53,598 bases of DNA from assembly GCA_964357395.1 (NCBI GenBank), contig CAYHLC010000001.1, positions 1 to 53,598 on the forward strand. Reading direction: 5' to 3'. Below are positions 6,815 through 53,191 of the stretch, in pieces. The DNA comes from an uncultured Candidatus Saccharibacteria bacterium (lineage in GTDB: Bacteria; Patescibacteriota; Minisyncoccia; Phycocordibacterales; Phycocordibacteraceae). Position 1 is the stretch's first letter, and each line of letters starts with the position of its first letter. Below the pieces are notes generated by a model. The model was not told the DNA's origin. It saw only the letters and a program-made list of their open reading frames with translations, and did not search any database. Position numbers and translations under genes: made by a program.

Positions 6815-7476
6815 AGAAGCTCTTTCTCCTCGAACTCCTTGGCGCCGCTCGTGCGGACAAAGTCAGCATAGTTTGAGCGTTTGGTGCCCTCGAACTGGTC
6901 TAGGATGATCTCCTGCGCAAGCAGGCCTCCCCAGCGGTTTTCTTTTACATAATCAGTGAGCGAGGACCACGGATACCGGTCCTCCTTATCCTTCCAGGCC
7001 TTCAGCTCTCGCGGGTTCCTGTGTATGTAGGCAGAAAGATACATCAGCTGCTCGTTCGTCGCTACATGTACCGCTTTATACCGCCCCTGGAATACGTGGC
7101 CAGGAGATTGGTACTTCGCGTTGAAATACTTCGTATAAGCGTCGCCCAGCCGCTGCATATAGCGCGCTATTCCGCCTTCCACCAGTTCGCGCAGCAACAA
7201 ATGGTAGTGGTTACCCATAATACAGAAGCTAACAAGCTCTACAGACCGACCATTCAGCACGTTTAGGAAGTCTCTTTCGGACACATCAAATCCAGCTTCA
7301 GAGTATGTTGCAGCAAGTCTTCCAACCTTTGGAAATGGGGTAGGGGACTGAAAATAGATAACCTCGAATAGGAAGCGTGCCAAGTCATGCTTGTCGCGGA
7401 AGGTCGCAGTTTTGAAGGCGCCTCTGTTGTAGACGTGATAGTACTCGCCGGGAGCAATGGTGCGACGCAGCGTCAT
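6811..7476 (-). mobile_element. Y1 HUH transposase (IS200-like / REP-associated tyrosine transposase, RAYT type)
   Basis: [18 protein letters not shown] (HUH), GHVFQGRYK, YIHRNP and YPWSS motifs. Confidence 0.9.
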
Positions 7477-35241: not shown

Positions 35242-35289
35242 ACCTCCACAAACTAAAACTGCCCCGAAGGGCAGTTAGTTTGTGGAGGT
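35242..35289. terminator. Long hairpin after tmRNA that includes an inverted copy of its 3' end
   Basis: ACCTCCACAAACT..AACTGCCC-CGAA-GGGCAGTT-AGTTTGTGGAGGT. Confidence 0.75.
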
Positions 35290-35682
35290 GGAGAGTAATG
35301 AGCTCTCGTCCAAAAAACGTATTTCGGATGTGTCTACTGTGTGTAGTTTGTTTCAGCATTTAAGTACTACAGTAAGAATCAAACAAGATAATGTAGTACC
35401 GAGCTCTTAATTTTGAACTATCGTCGAGCGGTCGATAGTTCTGATCCTGAGGTTATTACACCAGAGCTACGCTATCAGGAGTCACGTAGGTAGCGCCGTC
35501 CTGGCCGAAGCGAGAACGGAATCGTCATGAGTTATGCCATTACCGGAGCAAGGGCGAAGTACTCACGAGGACTTGCGACAAGTGCTTTTGCATTTATCGT
35601 TTGTTCGAGATTTTAGGTGTTCTCCAACATTCACCACACAGCAACAAAAGAAATATATCTCTTGTCGAATCAGGTCACCCCC
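35283..35682 (-). ncRNA. ssrA: tmRNA
   Basis: 5' GGGGGTGACCTGATTCGAC; 3' CACCTCCA with G3-U70; tag AKALVASPREYFALAPVMA* (35591-35532); lies directly downstream of smpB. Confidence 0.93.
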
Positions 35683-37385: not shown

Positions 37386-37795
37386 ATGACTCGGAAATTG
37401 TACCGAGCGTTGAGGAAGAAGTTGGTGAGTCCAGCCAAGAGGCCCATACCAATACGGGCCCAATAGACGTCTGCTCCTGCATACTCGACGAGTAGGGTGG
37501 TGCCGACCGTGATGAGCGCTGCATCCGCCACAACTATTACAAGGAAGTACGCGAGCCCCATCGGCACTGATCGGCCTCCGTCACCGAAGACGAGTATGCG
37601 AGCACCAAAGTAGTGGCCGGCAGCGCCAAGGCCAAATGAGAGGATGACGGCGAGGTAGTACTGGAGGCCGAGGAGGTCATACAGGACATACAAAAGGAAA
37701 ATCGAAAACGCGAACATCGCCGCTCCGATGAGTGAGAATTGCGTGAGGTCGCTGCTCGTTTTCGCAACCGAGAGCTCCTTCGTTTTTTCGGTCAT
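37382..37795 (-). CDS. GtrA family membrane protein, tandem paralog
   Basis: 4 TM; shares the FFLNARYNFR C-terminus with its neighbour. Confidence 0.85.
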   Translation of the reverse strand: MTEKTKELSVAKTSSDLTQFSLIGAAMFAFSIFLLYVLYDLLGLQYYLAVILSFGLGAAGHYFGARILVFGDGGRSVPMGLAYFLVIVVADAALITVGTTLLVEYAGADVYWARIGMGLLAGLTNFFLNARYNFRVI

Positions 37796-37814
37796 ACCGT
37801 ATATACTAGCGTAT
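37796..37814. promoter_or_regulatory. Overlapping bidirectional -10 elements for divergent leaderless gtrA and ftsH
   Basis: TATACT (+) and TAGTAT (-), each 7 nt before an ATG. Confidence 0.65.
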
Positions 37815-39767
37815 ATGACGGACAACGCGAGGGACAAGAAGGGTGCTCCCAAGAAGGACAAGGAGGACAAGAAGCCGTGGGTACCGCACCTCCAGATGCC
37901 AAAGGGCAGCAGCTGGGGCAATCTCTCGTCCATGCTGGCGGTCCTCCTCATACTCGCCTTGGCGTACTCATTCTTTTCCACGACTGGTACGACAGAGGAG
38001 TCGGTGTCGCTCTCGACCCTCGCCTCCGAGATCCGTGCTGGTTCGGTCAAGTCGATAGTCGTCGAGGGCGAGCAGCTCGATATCACCTACAAGGATGATA
38101 CGAAGAAGATCTCGAAGAAGGAGGCCGACGCGGCCCTCTCGGAGACACTCGCGAGCTACGGCATTACTGGTGTCGAGATGAGCAGTGTAGAGATCGAGGT
38201 CAAGAATGAGACCGGGTTTAAGTACTGGTTCTTCTCCTTAGCACCGATCATACTGCCGCTCTTACTCATTGCAGTTTTCGTCTGGTTCCTGTCGCGTCAG
38301 GTGCGCGGTGCGGGTATGCAAGCCTTTACCTTCGGACAGTCGAAGGCGAGGATGATCGACCCCAAGGACAGCGCGACTCGGGTCACCTTTGCAGACGTCG
38401 CAGGTGCCAAGGAGGCCAAGGAAGAGCTCACCGAGATCGTCGACTTCCTCAAGAACCCAAAGAAGTTCCTCGACATCGGCGCGCGCATCCCCAAGGGAGT
38501 GCTCTTGATGGGCGCGCCAGGGACTGGCAAGACCTTGCTTGGGCGCGCTGTTGCGGGCGAGGCGGGTGTGCCGTTCTTCTCGATTTCTGGCTCCGAGTTT
38601 GTGGAGATGTTCGTTGGTGTCGGTGCCTCTCGCGTGCGCGACCTCTTTGATATGGCAAAGCACGCAGCGCCGGCCATTATATTTGTTGATGAGATCGACG
38701 CCGTCGGTCGCGTACGCGGCACTGGCGTTGGTGGGGGCAACGACGAGCGCGAGCAGACGCTGAACCAGATACTGGTCGAGATGGACGGCTTCGAGCCGAA
38801 CGAAAAGGTGATTGTGATGGCTGCAACTAACCGCCCGGATGTGCTGGATCCAGCGCTCCTCCGCCCTGGCCGCTTTGATCGTCGCGTCACCATCGACCTT
38901 CCTGACCGTGACGACCGCGAGCAGATACTGAAGGTGCATGCGAGGAAGAAGCCGCTCGCAGAAGATGTGGTCCTCCGCGTTATTGCCGAGCGCACGCCAG
39001 GCTTCTCTGGCGCAGACCTCTACTCGCTGATGAACGAGGCTGCCATCCTTGCTGCGAGGGAGAATCGCAAGAAGGTCGGCCAATATGACCTCATCCGCTC
39101 GATTGAGAAGGTGATGCTTGGTCCAGAGCGGAAGAGTCACGTTTTGAACAAAAAAGAAAAAGAGATCACCGCATACCACGAAGCGGGGCACGCACTTGTC
39201 TCGTCGGTACTTCCATATGCGGACCCGGTACACAAGATATCGATCATCAGCCGCGGTCGCGCAGCGGGGTATACACTCAAGCTCCCATTCGAGGACACCA
39301 GGATGCAGTCGAAGAACGAGTTCCTCGACGATATCGCAGTCTCACTCGGCGGCTATGTAGCAGAGAAGGAGGTGTTCGGCGATCTCACCACCGGCCCATC
39401 GAACGACCTGCAGGTACTAACCGCACTCGCGCGCGACATGGTTACGAAGTACGGCATGTCGGATGAACTCGGCCCTATGGCGCTCGAGGGCGAGGGAGGC
39501 CGCACCTTGTTTGGACGCGGTGTGTCAGAGAAGGAGTATTCGGAAGCGATATCTGCGAAGATCGACACCGAGGTCAAGCTGATAATCGAAGGCGCGTACC
39601 AGAAGGCACTGAAGATCATCAAGGAGAAGCGCAGCGTCCTCAATGCTATAGCGGAAAAGTTGGTGGAAGTAGAGACCCTAGAGCGCGACGAGTTTGAGAA
39701 GCTCCTGATCGCAAACGGCATCACTCCGAAAGCAAAGAAGGACATAGAGCACCAGCCTATTGCGTAA
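37815..39767 (+). CDS. ftsH: ATP-dependent zinc metalloprotease FtsH
   Basis: 2 [29 protein letters not shown]. Confidence 0.99.
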
Positions 39768-39797
39768 CCTACCCCATTGAGGTATGGTAAGGCCGAT

Positions 39798-40028
39798 ATG
39801 AGCGACAGACGCGCAGAGTATAAGGGGCTCGCAACTGCATCGCGTGCAGCAGGCATGGGCCTTTTGGTAGGAACGATACTCTTTGGGCTCGGCGAGCCGC
39901 TCCCGCTACAGGAGTGGCAGGTTAACGTGCTCTTGGGAGGAGTAGCTGGCAGCGCCTTCCTCTACTACGTCCTCGCACCACTTTTTGAGGAGGAGTATCC
40001 GGGGGAGTCTCGCTCTGCGTACGCATAA
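39798..40028 (+). CDS. Small orphan membrane protein, 2 TM
   Basis: Two hydrophobic segments. Confidence 0.6.
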   Translation: MSDRRAEYKGLATASRAAGMGLLVGTILFGLGEPLPLQEWQVNVLLGGVAGSAFLYYVLAPLFEEEYPGESRSAYA

Positions 40029-40035
40029 CTAATAT

Positions 40036-40293
40036 ATGGCACCGAAAGCAGAATCGGCATGGCAGGAAGGATTTCTCGGCGCAGGACTAAGCCTCCTTGT
40101 AGTTTCGTTCATGCTCGAAACGTTTGTGCCTATTGATTGGTACGAGTCGCCACAAAACATGTCGATGGGGATCATAACCGGATCCGGCTTTATACTCACC
40201 GGTTTTGGTGCGGTGTTCATGCTCGCATCCGGTCTAGCCGAGAAGATACAGAGCATGGGTACACCGCGCACCCGCGTTGCTCACGCCGCTTAG
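40036..40293 (+). CDS. Small orphan membrane protein, 2 TM
   Basis: Two hydrophobic segments; closely follows the previous ORF. Confidence 0.6.
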   Translation: MAPKAESAWQEGFLGAGLSLLVVSFMLETFVPIDWYESPQNMSMGIITGSGFILTGFGAVFMLASGLAEKIQSMGTPRTRVAHAA

Positions 40294-40423
40294 GTCACAT
40301 ATCGAGTAGTTCGCGTGCGTATTCACTTTTAAGCACGTGCTCAAAACTGAATATCGCTGCGTGACACTCCAGATACTTTCGGTGGGTGGCTGTAAAGCGA
40401 CGCAAGCGGTATAGTAGTAACAT

Positions 40424-40713
40424 CCGCCCCTAAGCAAAGCTTCCTGGCGGGCACCTCGAAGGTCATGAGCGCAAGCGCTCGCGACCCTTCTCGGCTTCGC
40501 CAGTAGCTCAGTCGGTTAGAGCACGGAGCTTACGGGCGAGGGAGTGAGAGAAAAGCGGGCGTGTAGCTCAATGGTTAGAGCACCGAGCTTATACCTCGGC
40601 GGTTCCTGGTTCGAGTCCAGGCACGCCCACACAAACGTACGCTTTTCCGAGCGAGTGATGCACGTATCGAAGATATACCTCCGGGGTCCTTGGTTCGAGT
40701 CCAAGGGGGCGGA
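40424..40713 (+). tRNA. Interrupted outer tRNA-Ile(UAU) in three pieces (40424-40432, 40506-40532, 40676-40713); pseudogene or intron-containing
   Basis: Joined pieces give CCGCCCC TA GCTC AGTCGGTTA GAGC A CGGAG CTTATAC CTCCG GGGTC CTTGG TTCGAGT CCAAG GGGGCGG A with all four stems fully paired. Confidence 0.8.
40557..40629 (+). tRNA. tRNA-Ile(UAU), intact, nested in the outer tRNA
   Basis: GGGCGTG/CACGCCC acceptor, CCGAG-CTTATAC-CTCGG anticodon arm, TTCGAGT T-loop; no encoded CCA. Confidence 0.95.
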
Positions 40714-40737
40714 CTGGTTAGTGTAGACTTTGTAGTG

Positions 40738-41202
40738 ATGCACTACTTCGCATATGGTTCGAACATGAACCATGAGCAAATGCAAAAGTCATGTCCCGGC
40801 AGTATGTTCTTAAAGCCGGTGCGGCTTGATGGCTATACGTTTGTTTATGATGGTCGATCAACGGCAGAGATGCACACCGAGAAGGGTGCTGTTGCGAATA
40901 TCGTTCCCGATTCGAAAAAACATGTTTGGGGCGCTTTGTACGAAGTGTCAGAGCAAGATATTGCCAACCTAGATATCGTTGAGGATATCCCTCATGCGTA
41001 TCAAAAAGCAAATCTTGTAGTTCGAGATAGTCAGGGGACCTCTTACACTGGCGTAACTGCATATCTCAGACCTCCTCAAGAAATTGGTCAACCGACCGCT
41101 GACTACAAAGCTACAGTACTCCGTGGGGCACGAGATTCAGGGCTGCCCGACGATTACTTAGCGAGACTGGAGGCTAAAATAAGTTCTAACGTCGTTCAGT
41201 AG
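40738..41202 (+). CDS. Gamma-glutamylcyclotransferase family protein
   Basis: YFAYGSNM, VWGALYEV, LD..E. Confidence 0.88.
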   Translation: MHYFAYGSNMNHEQMQKSCPGSMFLKPVRLDGYTFVYDGRSTAEMHTEKGAVANIVPDSKKHVWGALYEVSEQDIANLDIVEDIPHAYQKANLVVRDSQGTSYTGVTAYLRPPQEIGQPTADYKATVLRGARDSGLPDDYLARLEAKISSNVVQ

Positions 41203-42155: not shown

Positions 42156-44288
42156 TTACTCGAAATGCAGGTCCTTCAGGGATTGGAGGGCCTGCTTTTT
42201 TAGTTGCGGATAGTTCGAGAGAGTGGGGTCGCGGGCAACGAGCGCAAAGGCTTCGGTGCGGGCCGCCTCCACAAGCTTCAGGTTCTTCAGTGCCTCCATA
42301 CCGATGTCCGAGAGGCCCCACTGACGGCGGCCATACAGCTCGCCGGCGCCGCGGAGGCTGAGGTCACGCTCGGCGAGCTCGAAGCCATTCTTTGCCGAGA
42401 CTATCGCCTTGAGGCGCTCATTGTTCGTGTTGCCCGCCTTGTCAACCATGAGGAAGCAGTACGGCTGGTGGGTAGAGCGCATGACGCGCCCGCGCAGCTG
42501 ATGCAGCTGCGCAAGGCCGAATCGCTCGGAGCCCTCGATCAGTATGATGGTCGCGTTTGGCACATTCACTCCTACCTCGACTACTGACGTAGCAACCAGT
42601 ATCTGGATCTTGTTCGCAGCAAACTCATCCATGGTCCTCTCTTTATCATTCGGGGTCATCTTGCTGTGCAGCTCTGCAACGGAGTACTCGGGGAACATCT
42701 TTTTCAAATTCTTCAACTCCGCTTGTACCGAGCGGGCCTGCATAGCAAGTTGTTTGGTTGGGTCCGGTTCATCAATTCGTGGGCAGATGACATATGCTTG
42801 GCGTCCTTCCTCCAGTAGCTCGCGGACCTTGGCATACGCTTTTGTTCGCTGCGCGGGGCCAGCTATCTCAGTTTTTATTTCCTTCCTACCAGCAGGCAGC
42901 TCATCGAGGATGGTGAGGTCGAGGTCGCCATACAAGGTGAGTGCGAGCGTTCGGGGGATAGGAGTAGCCGTCATGGATAGCAAGTGGGGTGCAACATTAT
43001 CTTTGAGCGCGAGTGCCTGACGTTGGAAGGTGCCGAAGCGGTGTTGCTCGTCAATGATGACATAGGCAAGGTATTTAAACTTGACCGCTTTTTGTATCAG
43101 CGCGTGCGTGCCAATCAGTATTGGCACCTCGCCATTTGCTACCCACTTCAGGAGCTGCGTGCGCGAGAGCTCGGTAGCCTTCCCCTTGTTGACCTTGGAC
43201 GGAAACTTGTAGCACCCGGATGAGGTGATTAGTCCGATTTGAATAGGATACTCTTTGAAAAAGGAAGTAAAAGTCTCGAAGTGCTGCTTGGCCAGTATCT
43301 CGGTGGGGCACATGTACGCGACCTGCAGGTTACCAAAGTTCTTGTCCGGGACTGGCCGACTTGTTACTACCGCATACGCGGTTGCAGCGGCGACGGCAGT
43401 CTTGCCGCTGCCGACGTCGCCCTCGAGGAGCCTCGCCATCGGGTAGGGCTCGAGGAAGTTGGCGAGTATATCTCCGATTGCCTTCTTCTGCCCACCGGTG
43501 GGGGTGAAGGGGAACGAGGACACGAACTTGGCTACCCGCGACTCCTCTGCATCAACGGGGAGCGCGTTTCGTGTGCGGTTACGCTCGCGCTCCACGCCGC
43601 GCCCGAGCTGGATGAGGAATACCTCCTCGAATGCGAAGCGCTTCCGTGCTGACTCCGCATCCTTGTCGTTCTTCGGTTGGTGCGCCCAGATGAGTGCGGT
43701 CCAGAGTGTGGGGAGGTGGTACTTCTCTATGATCTTTTCTGGTATCAGATCCTGGATAGTATCCAAAACCTTTTCCTCGAACACGCGCTTCATGGCGTGA
43801 TAGAACCACAAGGACGTGATGCCTGCCGACTCGGGGTAGACCGGCATCATGCCCTCCTTCGCTAAAGCTACGGAGGGTAAACCCGCCGCCTTCTCTACAA
43901 CCGGGTTCGCAATATACTTGCCGCTACTCGATTGGCTGACGGTACCGCGCAGGCGCACCAACGTATCAGTCGGAACCATTTTGGCCAAGTACGGTTGGTG
44001 GAACCACATAACGCGAATGGTCCCAGTGCCGTCATCAAACCTGCCTTCGGCCATAGGGACCTTCCGCTTCCAAGACTTCTTCATCTCTAACTTCGTAAAC
44101 GTGCCATAGATGGTCACCTCGCCAGCTATGTTCGACTCCGCGATTGTACGCACGTCCGCTGCAGACTCGTAGCGGTGTGGGATGTGATACAGCAGGTCGC
44201 GGATAGTATGGAGCCCGAGGCGGCCGAGCGCCGCCTTCTGCACTTGGGTCAGTCGGGTGAGCTCGCTAATGGGGGAGTCCGGCGTCAC
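42156..44288 (-). CDS. recG: ATP-dependent DNA helicase RecG
   Basis: GDVGSGKT, DEQHRFG, MTATPIPRTL, GLAQLHQLRGRV. Confidence 0.98.
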   Translation of the reverse strand: MTPDSPISELTRLTQVQKAALGRLGLHTIRDLLYHIPHRYESAADVRTIAESNIAGEVTIYGTFTKLEMKKSWKRKVPMAEGRFDDGTGTIRVMWFHQPYLAKMVPTDTLVRLRGTVSQSSSGKYIANPVVEKAAGLPSVALAKEGMMPVYPESAGITSLWFYHAMKRVFEEKVLDTIQDLIPEKIIEKYHLPTLWTALIWAHQPKNDKDAESARKRFAFEEVFLIQLGRGVERERNRTRNALPVDAEESRVAKFVSSFPFTPTGGQKKAIGDILANFLEPYPMARLLEGDVGSGKTAVAAATAYAVVTSRPVPDKNFGNLQVAYMCPTEILAKQHFETFTSFFKEYPIQIGLITSSGCYKFPSKVNKGKATELSRTQLLKWVANGEVPILIGTHALIQKAVKFKYLAYVIIDEQHRFGTFQRQALALKDNVAPHLLSMTATPIPRTLALTLYGDLDLTILDELPAGRKEIKTEIAGPAQRTKAYAKVRELLEEGRQAYVICPRIDEPDPTKQLAMQARSVQAELKNLKKMFPEYSVAELHSKMTPNDKERTMDEFAANKIQILVATSVVEVGVNVPNATIILIEGSERFGLAQLHQLRGRVMRSTHQPYCFLMVDKAGNTNNERLKAIVSAKNGFELAERDLSLRGAGELYGRRQWGLSDIGMEALKNLKLVEAARTEAFALVARDPTLSNYPQLKKQALQSLKDLHFE
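43852..43877. repeat. REP-like imperfect palindrome inside recG
   Basis: CCCTCCTTCGCTAAAGCTACGGAGGG; read in frame as PSVALAKEG. Confidence 0.7.
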
Positions 44289-51460: not shown

Positions 51461-53191
51461 ATGCACCCATTTTTAAAACGACTCAAGCTTAACAAAATTA
51501 TCACGTGGGCTAAGGCCAACAAGGTTATCGCGGGTATCGTCGTGGTCGCCATCCTTGGCGCCGGCTACGGAGCATACGCAGCCTTCGGTGGGAGCGCCGC
51601 CGCAGTCACCTACGTCTATGGAAACGTAGATCGCGGTGACATTACGACCACGATTGACGCAACGGGGCAGGTGTCGGCCTCGAACCAGCTCGACATCATG
51701 CCTCAGGTCTCCGGCGAGGTATGGTCGGTCAATGTTACGAATGGAGCGCGCGTAGCGCAGGGCCAACTGCTTGCCGTCATCGACCCCACCGATGCACAAA
51801 AGTCAGTGCGCGACGCAGCTGCGAACCTCGAGAGCGCTGAGATCTCGCTTGAAAAGCTGCTAAAGCCCGCATCCACACTCACGCTTACCCAAGCACAAAA
51901 CGCGCTCACAAACGCTGAGGACTCGCTCACCAAGCTCTACGCAGATGCGAAGGTCGATATCACCGACACCTTTCTCGACATGCCAAGCATTATCGCGGGG
52001 CTCGAGGAGGTGCTGACTGACTCGACTGCATGCGGTGGTAGCCAAGCGAATGTGGATTGCTACAGCAACGCAGTTGATATCTATGATCCGCGTGCGTCCT
52101 CGTACCGTGATCAGGCACTCGTCGATTTTGCAGACGCTAAGAAGGCCTACGACACCGTTTTTACCAAGTACCAATCACTCGGCGCTGCCCCGAGCGACGT
52201 CGCAGTCGAGGAAGTGCTCGCGACCTCGTTTGTGGCGGTGGGCGAGGTAGCTCAGGCGGTCAAGAGTGCACACGCCTTCATACAGCTCTATGTCGACATA
52301 CGAGAGTCTCGTGGACAGACCGTGCCGACGGTCGCTACCGAGTCGCTCGCAGATCTGAATACCGATACCGTGACACTGAACGGCCATCTCTCGACGCTAC
52401 TCGCGGACACGAGCTCGTTTAAGACATCCAAGCAGAGCATCATCGAAAAGCAGCAATCCCTCGCCGATGTTACGGACGGCGCTGACACGCTTGATGTGCG
52501 GAGCGCCACGCTCTCGATCACTAAGGCGAGGGACAGTCTCGCGGATGCCGAGCGCGCCCTTGCCAAGTATTATGTACGCGCTCCATTTGCGGGCACCATT
52601 GCATCGCTCAATATTAAGAAGTATGACCGTGCAGGTAGTAGCAAGATCGCAACGCTGATTACGGACGCAAAGACCGCCGAGCTCTCGCTGAACGAGGTTG
52701 ATGTCGCCAAGGTGCAGGTAGGGGACAAGGCGGCGCTCACCTTCGATGCGGTGGAGGATGCAACACTCGAGGGCACTGTAGCAGAGGTAGACTCGATCGG
52801 TACTGTCACGCAGGGTGTCGTTAGTTACCAGATCAAGATTGCATTCGATACAGGGGAGTACACTATTCGCCCAAGTATGACTGTCAACGCCTCTATCATC
52901 GTCGAGTCGAAGCAGGGTGTGTTAGTTGTTCCAGCGAGCGCCGTGAAGGAGCAAAACGGAGAGTCGTACGTCGAGGCGATGCGAGAGGGCCGACTTACGC
53001 GCGTCCCCGTTGAGGTTGGTATTACTGATGATATACGTGTCGAGATAGTCGCGGGCCTGAACGAGGGGGACGAGATAGTAGTTCGCACCACTACCGGTAC
53101 CGCTGCCGAGACGACCACAACTGCCGCCCCTCGCGTGGGCGGTGGAGGAGGGGGCGGAGGTGGGGGTGGGCCACAGTTCCGCGGCATATGA
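51461..53191 (+). CDS. Efflux periplasmic adaptor (MacA/YknX-like MFP)
   Basis: N-terminal TM, PQVSG lipoyl-like motif, long coiled coil, RAPFAG, Gly-rich tail. Confidence 0.9.

Follow-up and report, generated by a model that had tools for sequence, protein, structure and literature searches.

A tRNA-Ile(UAU) gene lying within the pieces of another in a Saccharibacteria genome: a candidate case of gene replacement by small insertion elements

How does a complete tRNA gene come to lie inside a second tRNA gene with the same anticodon, and which of the two does the organism use? This question is raised by a locus at positions 40,410 to 40,713 of a 53,598-nucleotide stretch of DNA from an uncultured groundwater bacterium of the Candidatus Saccharibacteria (NCBI GenBank assembly GCA_964357395.1, contig CAYHLC010000001.1, positions 1 to 53,598 of the forward strand; hereafter the window). 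There, an intact tRNA-Ile(UAU) gene is held within another tRNA-Ile(UAU) gene that two inserts split into three pieces. An earlier note on the sequence had offered two explanations, a new tRNA-processing or splicing arrangement or a small mobile element that targets a tRNA while carrying a replacement copy. The reading we favour, with modest confidence, is close to the second: a tRNA-Ile(UAU) gene was probably disrupted by small insertion elements, one of which carried a replacement, and the outer gene would persist as promoter and leader and remain unspliced. Below, G000 denotes the genome of the window (796 kb in 18 contigs, GC 0.55, completeness score 100%), other G numbers denote its relatives, L numbers fetched loci and C numbers contigs.

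The three outer pieces, their cloverleaf, the stems of the first insert, the clamps of the second and the repeated TA, all described in the earlier note, were present at the same positions. Piece 1 (40424..40432; all parts of the locus are on the + strand) comprises the 7-nt 5' acceptor strand followed by U8 and A9, and pairs 7/7 with 40706-40712. Insert 1 (40433..40505) separates it from piece 2 (40506..40532), which provides the D arm, the 5' anticodon stem and CTTA. Insert 2 opens with a 5' flank (40533..40556) consisting of a purine-rich motif and the clamp arm GAAAAGCG, continues with the inner tRNA-Ile(UAU) (40557..40630), and closes with a 3' flank (40631..40675) that holds the clamp arm CGCTTTTC, the motif TCCGAGCGA (40646-40654) and a small hairpin extending into the TAT of piece 3. 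Piece 3 (40676..40713) supplies TAC, the 3' anticodon stem, the variable loop, the T arm, the 3' acceptor strand and the discriminator A. Insert 1 is a copy of an element family that we call LE (covariance model R1, 87.9 bits over 40424-40507) and consists of a small palindrome, a guide-like stretch A', a long hairpin with conserved loops and a closing arm, A(down), followed by TA; piece 1 is at the same time the LE repeat A(up). Its stems are CTGGCG/CGCCAG, GAAGGTC/GACCCTTC and GAGCGC/GCGCTC. Insert 2 is a 141-nt hairpin with no open reading frame (ORF) inside, in which the clamps GAAAAGCG/CGCTTTTC and TACG/CGTA hold the inner tRNA at the tip. In the window sequence TA stands on both sides of each insert.

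Both genes were found to be of tRNA-Ile(UAU) type. The inner one, complete and divergent as first described, was called tRNA-Ile(tat) by ARAGORN and scored 74.6 bits over 40557-40629 with Rfam model RF00005, for which the gathering threshold is 29. The outer gene went undetected by ARAGORN, with or without its intron option, and by Rfam, both of which reported the inner gene alone. When the outer pieces were joined by coordinates in a script before folding, they formed a full cloverleaf by unconstrained minimum free energy (MFE) prediction, and ARAGORN assigned the product to tRNA-Ile(tat), in agreement with the identity first proposed for it. The joined sequence was identical at 72/74 positions to the uninterrupted tRNA-Ile(UAU) gene of G025 (L037), at 71/74 to that of G020:C46 (L038) and at 70/74 to that of G023 (L019). 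Because of this identity to uninterrupted congener genes, the outer gene is a split copy of a real gene type and not a chance assembly of tRNA-like segments. Only 56/74 positions were shared between the joined outer gene and the inner gene, and their anticodon stems differ in sequence. The outer gene is a second tRNA-Ile(UAU) of a different sequence type, which is intact in some congeners.

An assembly artefact, that is, a chimeric join of reads from two tRNA-Ile genes, was also weighed. We used Logan contigs from four runs (X1-X4) of two studies, of which X1 may be the source sample. The 5' side was bridged by X1 record 1 over 40000-40591 and by X2 record 10 over 40271-40533, both with 0 differences, and the 3' side by X1 record 7 over 40601-40914 (0 differences), X3 record 22 over 40600-40712 (1 difference) and X4 record 32 over 40595-40713 (0 differences). 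Each insert/outer junction was covered with 0-1 differences by contigs of two studies. The k-mers of such tRNAs are common to many community members, and no single listed Logan contig crossed 40591-40601, where the k-mers are shared with other tRNAs. However, the same architecture was found again in independently assembled relatives. On the contig coverage we rejected misassembly, which we regard as having next to no likelihood.

Of the remaining explanations, splicing could be confronted directly with the gene content of G000. No tRNA-splicing endonuclease was found (PF01974, 0 matches at E<=1 in six frames of the genome; as a control, the same model matched in 6/14 genomes, 4 of these over the cut-off). 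RtcB (PF01139) and Rnl-type RNA ligases (PF09414) likewise had 0 matches in G000; 2H-type (LigT) ligases were not searched for. On these three negatives a protein-spliced tRNA intron of the archaeal or eukaryal type was rejected. By eye, no clear 3-4-3 bulge-helix-bulge motif was seen at the exon-intron junctions. A permissive scan of 40380-40760 with 4227 Rfam models (E<=10) gave no intron or ribozyme family for either insert; apart from the inner tRNA, it returned YrlA over the D-arm at 18 bits (gathering 69) and Plastid-ycf2 antisense to the inner tRNA at 46.7 bits (gathering 65.7). The claim that the inserts are too short for group I introns held: without the embedded tRNA they measure 71 and ~67 nt, far below the group I core, and RF00028 had no match in the scanned interval, with its matches lying elsewhere in the genome. 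Group I identity was rejected for both inserts on this basis.

A further rival is a novel RNA-level route, in which the inserts would be removed and the three exons ligated into a second functional tRNA-Ile(UAU) while the inner tRNA would be released from its intron. The genome in which these three kinds of splicing gene are missing is scored 100% complete, and the outer halves of relatives, described below, mostly argue in the same direction. Several features would nevertheless suit such a route: the reconstructed outer tRNA is flawless, its 3' strand pairs with the distal acceptor copy and not with the proximal one, each insert folds into a domain of its own with TA at its borders, and the LE has conserved unpaired nucleotides, as in small ribozymes. 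Taking these together we find maturation of the outer tRNA improbable, and the new splicing arrangement that had been suggested first found no support.

The decoding capacity of G000 bears on which gene is in use. TilS was not found in G000, so that the decoding of AUA relies on tRNA-Ile(UAU), for which ARAGORN and Rfam detected a single intact gene, the inner one. Disruption of the resident gene would therefore be tolerable only with a replacement, and without TilS only an insertion that carried a substitute could survive. In our best reading of the locus, the site between ftsH and recG is the tRNA-Ile(UAU) site of the organism, and the inner tRNA at 40557-40630 would be the working gene.

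The relatives allowed this reading to be compared with a series of related arrangements. The census covers loci fetched through similarity searches rather than every genome, and several of the readings were made by eye on printed sequence. In G000 the locus lies between ftsH (37728..39767, +; Pfam Peptidase_M41 and AAA) and recG (42156..44288, -; Pfam RecG_wedge, DEAD and Helicase_C), and one or both of these genes flank tRNA-Ile(UAU) in the loci of relatives (by tblastn, ftsH in 17 and recG in 13 other loci), which makes these loci alleles of one site. The uninterrupted alleles that the note had recommended looking for exist: a plain gene occupies the site in G012, the closest relative (FtsH 92.8%), and in G033, G018, G044, G015 and G060. 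An LE leader alone precedes the gene in G023, G024, G026 (a variant) and G105. A complete outer gene was seen in G000, where it is perfect, and in G010, where pair 7:66 is mismatched and the D loop lacks GG. Three genomes have a 5' half whose 3' counterpart is degenerate or chimeric: in G004 the T stem and the acceptor are broken, in G016 the 3' half belongs to the other sequence type and the T arm is destroyed, and in G057 the acceptor strands are non-complementary and a third insert lies in the T arm. Only the 5' half, followed by a terminator-like hairpin, is left in G007, G014 and G017, and only a 3' remnant in G049. Three further loci stand outside the synteny comparison: G020:C71 has a swapped-order nest of the two sequence types in which the outer anticodon loop is altered, G019 retains just a 5' half, and in G025:C91 a decayed 5' half of the other type precedes an intact outer-type gene. 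Ideal splicing could yield a valid tRNA-Ile(UAU) at 2 of the six loci with both outer halves and could not at the other 4, which counts against splicing.

The same series bears on a second rival, in which the outer halves and flanks are kept as a working RNA without ligation, a tRNA-shaped clamp and long stem presenting the inner tRNA. Like the processing stems of rRNA, such a scaffold would assist RNase P and the maturation of the 3' end, or would shield the precursor; in another version, the pieces would persist as a stable multi-piece tRNA-like RNA. At least 9 genomes keep a 5' half-tRNA leader, the outer stems pair perfectly in G000 and almost perfectly in G010, and the differing anticodon stems of the inner and outer tRNAs would limit mispairing. 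In addition, the flanks of insert 2 have quite different sequences in relatives and are still mutually complementary, with duplex z-scores, each against 300 shuffles, of -2.8 in G010, -4.3 in G004, -3.8 in G057 and -5.0 in G020. The duplex of G000 itself, however, is not significant, the 3' half is degenerate, chimeric or absent in G004, G016, G057, G007, G014, G017 and G019, and six relatives including the closest have the plain gene, so that a scaffold would be dispensable. We therefore rate a retained scaffold as unlikely, although less so than splicing. The MFE fold of the whole precursor (z -2.1) retained the outer acceptor and T arm and was otherwise uninformative.

If the outer gene was disrupted and replaced, the inner gene must be transcribed from somewhere. 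The sequence TATAGT (40410..40415) is the likely -10 box for the whole locus. As a -10 element it was upheld by its conserved position, 8 nt (9/11 loci) or 10 nt (2/11) upstream of the 5' end of the outer or plain tRNA in relatives (by eye), and was not upheld by a strict sigma-70 scan, which gave no full -35/-10 promoter at the locus. By eye, the inner tRNA had no -10-like box of its own between 40433 and 40556. Because the inner gene lacks such a box and the nested and half-nested loci of relatives have TATAGT 8-10 nt before the outer 5' end, we propose that the outer promoter drives the inner tRNA.

Under the replacement reading, two small hairpin-forming insertions of a clade-specific family would have broken the outer gene, each directly after TA. 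An LE would have inserted after U8-A9, and an LE-like hairpin of opposite orientation, with the inner tRNA at its tip, in the anticodon loop. Transcription would start ~8 nt downstream of TATAGT, and outer piece 1, the LE, outer piece 2 and the 5' flank would form a ~133-nt leader. RNase P, whose RNA is present in G000 in a reduced form (86 bits), would cut at 40557, ordinary 3' maturation would free the inner tRNA, and the outer pieces would be left as unligated by-products. The outer gene would in this way survive as promoter donor and leader, and in G000 would not yet have decayed.

What are the inserts? Insert 1 is one of three strong LE copies in G000 (87.9, 88.0 and 93.4 bits; the next match has 24.6). 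The other two stand directly 5' of the intact genes for tRNA-Lys(CUU) and tRNA-Arg(GCG); they are not part of the mature tRNA, whose first 8-9 nt occur on both sides of the LE. A typical LE is ~84 nt long and usually lies just 5' of a mature tRNA, between two copies of its first 9 nt. It begins with A(up), a copy of the first 7 nt of the tRNA, followed by T or TA, a small palindrome (AAGC-NNN-GCTT in this genus) and A', a stretch complementary to A. After A' come the junction CTCGGA or CTCGAAG and a long hairpin with conserved internal loops and a bulged C, and then TCCTCG or TTCTCG with ~3 nt more, A(down), which is the real 5' end of the tRNA, and TA.

The LE is a real structured family with strong covariation. 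In 20 copies from relatives, which aligned well, a structure of the 5' hairpin and the long hairpin had 91.8% of its cells paired compared with 34-47% for slid partners, 18/24 pairs had changed on both sides, and 0/500 shuffles matched. A larger alignment of 53 distinct copies, which was fitted to the model and so leans towards the structure, gave 92.5% paired cells compared with 38-51% for slid partners, with two-sided changes at 23/24 pairs; its covariation score was 0.674, compared with 0.08-0.16, and 0/500 shuffles reached the observed values. The arms A' and A(down) differ between copies and covary. Among 151 genomes drawn evenly from the order, 56 had an LE (47/134 of the high-quality genomes; covariance model, E<=0.001), and one congener had 17 copies, some in tandem.

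We inspected 29 LE loci from other genomes. In ten, the last 11 nt of the match double as the first 11 of a tRNA; in 3, a tRNA follows at a distance of 66-170 nt; 2 stand before a tRNA that, by eye, carries a group I intron; 1 is situated within a duplicate tRNA-Thr and 1 in a 23S-5S spacer, 15 nt before the 5S rRNA identified by Rfam (L051, G081:C12, LE at 1501-1584). No tRNA was present within 200 nt of the remaining 12, several of which adjoin the start of an ORF. In L051 the 23S gene carries a group I intron (61.8 bits). In a scan for acceptor pairing over the loci fetched by then, almost all flagged extra upstream acceptor copies preceded an intact tRNA; those without one included L047 and L048 (read by eye as holding a group I intron), L015 (the swapped nest), L059 (an LE in a duplicate tRNA-Thr) and four rows taken as chance matches. 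An LE inside a tRNA, as in the window, is thus the exception, and this normal placement outside mature tRNAs is a further argument against the LE being spliced out.

Locus L059 (G091:C13, ~1440-1610, -) itself consists of a second tRNA-Thr beside an intact one. This second copy holds a hairpin insert near position 26, and an LE separates its anticodon stem from its variable loop. Repeats of a TCCGAGCGAG ... GTATCGAAGATAC module, as in insert 2 of the window, follow downstream.

In the window copy, unusually, A(down) has diverged and forms a closing stem with A', which leaves A(up) as the only arm able to pair with the 3' acceptor strand. Across 41 gap-free LE copies A(up) was identical to A(down) in 27, and among the 14 with differing arms A' fitted A(down) better in 10 and A(up) better in 2, with 2 equal. 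Since A' tracks A(down), the constrained unit is [A' ... A(down)], and A(up) is flank. G000 also holds a reversed LE (C3:40124-40211, -; R1 24.6 bits) in the 3' trailer of tRNA-Gly(UCC) (C3:40064-40135), with the 8-nt 3' acceptor strand and discriminator on both sides, which mirrors the 5' arrangement. In the LE stems G-U (32) and A-C (29) were about equally frequent among 1219 cells; this lack of a wobble excess does not favour selection on an RNA strand, and counts once more against splicing. Taken from sequence, the reversed copy, the lack of wobble excess and the tracking of A(down) by A' pull away from a leader acting purely at the RNA level.

The distance from promoter to A is 8 nt alike in the filled Ile loci of G000 and G023 and in the empty one of G020:C46 (by eye). 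In sequence, the LE resembles an insertion placed after T8-A9 together with a duplicate of nt 1-9, as would suit a hairpin element that finds its target by base pairing and brings a target copy with it. Re-insertion at the regenerated target would then account for tandem arrays in which A is identical. Counting against a plain mobile-DNA view, 17/29 LE loci are in sense orientation before stable-RNA genes (16 tRNA-associated, one 5S), and the unpaired nucleotides are strongly conserved. A bolder alternative is that the LE may be a leader ribozyme or processing module for stable RNAs and that the outer tRNA may truly be matured.

As possible movers we noted five ORFs of ~220-228 aa in G000 resembling Y1 (HUH) transposases (PF01797), at window 7015-7263 (-) and at C2:89306-89980, C2:106143-106370, C2:160316-160540 and C2:127269-127943. 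At least four of the five are flanked by palindromes of their own that are unlike the LE (by eye). PF01797 ORFs numbered 1 in G007, 2 in G183, 2 in G102 and 0 in G152, and G152 has LE copies. No IS110-type recombinase matched over the cut-off. The Y1 ORFs may be a lead to LE movement and are taken as a lead only.

Insert 2 was compared with the LE on its minus strand, where its flanks show the LE junction motif TCGCTCGGA (40654-40646), a stem and a TCC/CTCG-type 3' motif; the 5' flank resembles the 3' part of the LE at the motif level, and the antisense tRNA occupies the place of the LE apical hairpin. The same minus-strand arrangement was seen in G004 and G020 and more loosely in G010, and G091 contains repeats of the small-hairpin module. 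A TCCGAGCGA-type 3' flank motif stands at the same place in G004 and in other X2-X4 contigs, where contigs of other community members held further nests with this motif. The 9-mer TCG[CT]TCGGA occurs 19 times in the genome against ~12 expected, so that it has weight only through its recurrence at the same place elsewhere. The TA is duplicated at insert 2 (CTTA ... TATAC) in G000, G010, G004 and G057. Inside the insert of G004 and that of G017, the inner tRNA is also accompanied by a sense LE of its own.

One could go further and suppose that the LE is a new guide-bearing hairpin element homing to tRNA edges, with a cargo form that carries tRNA-Ile(UAU). We hold this as a tentative and rather doubtful proposal. 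A' would pair both with its own 3' arm and with the target, and the element would home just after TA at the outer edge of the acceptor stem, sense at the 5' end and reversed at the 3' end. It would bring the first 7-9 nt of the tRNA and so regenerate the gene, and re-insertion alongside would make tandem arrays. The cargo form would home into the anticodon loop of the resident tRNA-Ile(UAU), destroying and replacing the gene, and would be indispensable where TilS is absent.

Returning to disruption and replacement by small insertion elements, several observations weigh against it and account for our modest confidence. The outer gene of G000 is flawless, with four fully paired stems and G18/G19 and the T loop intact, and the intact stems suggest selection or recent origin, as the earlier note held. 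The two differences of its stems from the G023 gene (pairs 7:66 and 28:42) are both compensatory. The three changes that spoil the proximal acceptor copy all fall within 7 nt, and the 74 tRNA positions show no pair-breaking change. Neutral decay does not predict this clustering, and the explanation would lie in a very recent event, in selection acting on the outer RNA or in a 3' arm borne by the element; the possibility that the element brought its own 3' arm is in line with the LE analysis. The flank pairing of insert 2 in G000 is weak (z -1.1, with 40/300 shuffles as good), and its LE likeness consists of short motifs, with R1 scoring -0.9 bits on the minus strand. The four runs showed no empty/filled polymorphism and no joint deleting either insert, in contigs, which drop rare variants. 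Finally, that the outer gene goes unspliced is itself something we infer from gene content and comparison. For the mobile element with a replacement copy, then, the plain, nested and swapped alleles, the TA duplication, the paired flanks and the family motifs speak in favour, and the mobility of the insert elements is presumed from these sequence features.

Other features of the genome and window touch these subjects more loosely. G000 has only 33 standard tRNA genes by our count; those for Ala, Asn and Asp are missing, as is an uninterrupted gene for Met. Three contigs (C10, C15 and C17) end within tRNA genes, and tRNA loci seem to break the assembly; the missing genes are possibly unassembled, and we dropped them as proof of widespread splitting. 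Other tRNA genes of G000 are interrupted by group I introns (C1:73039-73226, 46.6 bits; C15:4669-4899). The genes at C1:73017-73294, C15:4669-4899 and C17:351-618 have anticodon-loop inserts of ~190-230 nt, two of which match the group I model at 46-47 bits, below the gathering score, and long LE variants lie upstream of the interrupted genes on C15 and C17. Short tRNA 3'-end repeats of the classic type occur near tRNAs in these genomes: on G000:C7 (~7110-7095, -, ~140 nt downstream of tRNA-Arg(GCG)), in L011 (G012) and in L038 (G020:C46), the last 16-18 nt of the tRNA recur 140-190 nt downstream, after a terminator-like hairpin and a conserved GAGACGGAGCC... sequence. They look like small att-type insertions of a second element family. 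Between ftsH and the tRNA locus are two small ORFs of 83 and 85 aa (39777-40028 and 40036-40293, +) with neither a Pfam match nor, among the loci of relatives, any tblastn match, an indication that this spacer underwent remodelling in G000. The window also holds a tmRNA gene (35280-35682, -, 97.5 bits), and a tRNA-like D-arm string at 52248, in GC-rich and apparently coding sequence, was taken as chance.

If the replacement reading is true, the locus records gene replacement at an essential single-copy tRNA site, where a small element broke the only AUA decoder of a bacterium lacking TilS and survived by carrying the substitute. The relatives preserve every stage of the aftermath, from the plain gene through the LE-led gene and the full nest to the swapped nest and to decayed or missing outer halves. 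This bears on tRNA gene turnover in the minimal genomes of bacteria like those of the candidate phyla radiation, and explains how tRNA finders come to under-count or mis-call genes in them. The LE may matter more: ~84 nt long, covarying very strongly, present in more than a third of the sampled genomes, it copies the first nucleotides of the gene that follows. It would be either mobile DNA with a built-in guide or an RNA processing module, and how the family moves or acts is the more novel part. In the literature consulted, at the level of listings, abstracts and passages of PMC10714607, we found no paper on a tRNA nested in a tRNA, or on an LE-like leader, in bacteria.

How does the locus compare with known systems? 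Group I introns in the anticodon loops of bacterial tRNAs have been described (bioRxiv 10.1101/2020.01.27.920355). The locus is like them in that a bacterial tRNA is interrupted in the anticodon loop, and such introns occur at other tRNAs of G000; it is unlike them in that both inserts are of subcritical size and fail to match the group I model. Multi-intron tRNAs of archaea and algae offer another likeness, since the same isoacceptor can be interrupted more than once there, including in the D-arm region and the anticodon loop, by intervening sequences that are interrelated and appear to move between tRNAs, as may also be the case here. Those introns are cut by EndA at a bulge-helix-bulge and the exons ligated by RtcB, whereas G000 has neither gene, and we know of no intron of this kind that holds a whole tRNA. 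The likeness is only in appearance, the defining enzymes being absent.

For the LE, the nearest systems are small repeats. Correia elements (NEMIS) duplicate TA and form co-transcribed hairpins, REP/REPIN sequences are mobilised by RAYT, and PATEs derive from IS200/IS605 elements with guide-target pairing. Like Correia elements, REPINs and IS200-derived repeats, the LE is short and repeated, forms a hairpin, is sometimes tandem and inserts after TA. Like PATEs, it has a guide-like stretch, A', that pairs with its own 3' arm and usually with the left flank, in a genome with five Y1 ORFs. It differs from all of these in lacking classical terminal inverted repeats and in having arms that match the first 7-9 nt of the neighbouring gene. 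Compared with TA-targeting miniature inverted-repeat transposable elements (IS630/Correia-like), the TA duplication was found and shared terminal inverted repeats were not. The Y1 ORFs of G000 are flanked by other palindromes, and no link between them and the LE was seen.

For the nest as a whole, tRNA-targeting integrative elements (phages and genomic islands with attP) carry a copy of the tRNA part that they displace, and the anticodon loop is a classic place of crossover. As in these, a tRNA gene was the target here, tRNA sequence was apparently brought to keep function, and displaced fragments remain. Integrative elements carry only the part 3' of the crossover and rebuild a hybrid gene at one junction, whereas the displaced halves here enclose an entire, independent tRNA that has an acceptor stem of its own, in 141 nt and with no integrase. 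An integrase-type island proper was rejected, since the outer 5' half runs into non-tRNA flank and not into a 3' half, and the insert lacks an ORF. By this analogy, the locus would work most like the tRNA-targeting integrative elements that restore the gene they interrupt.

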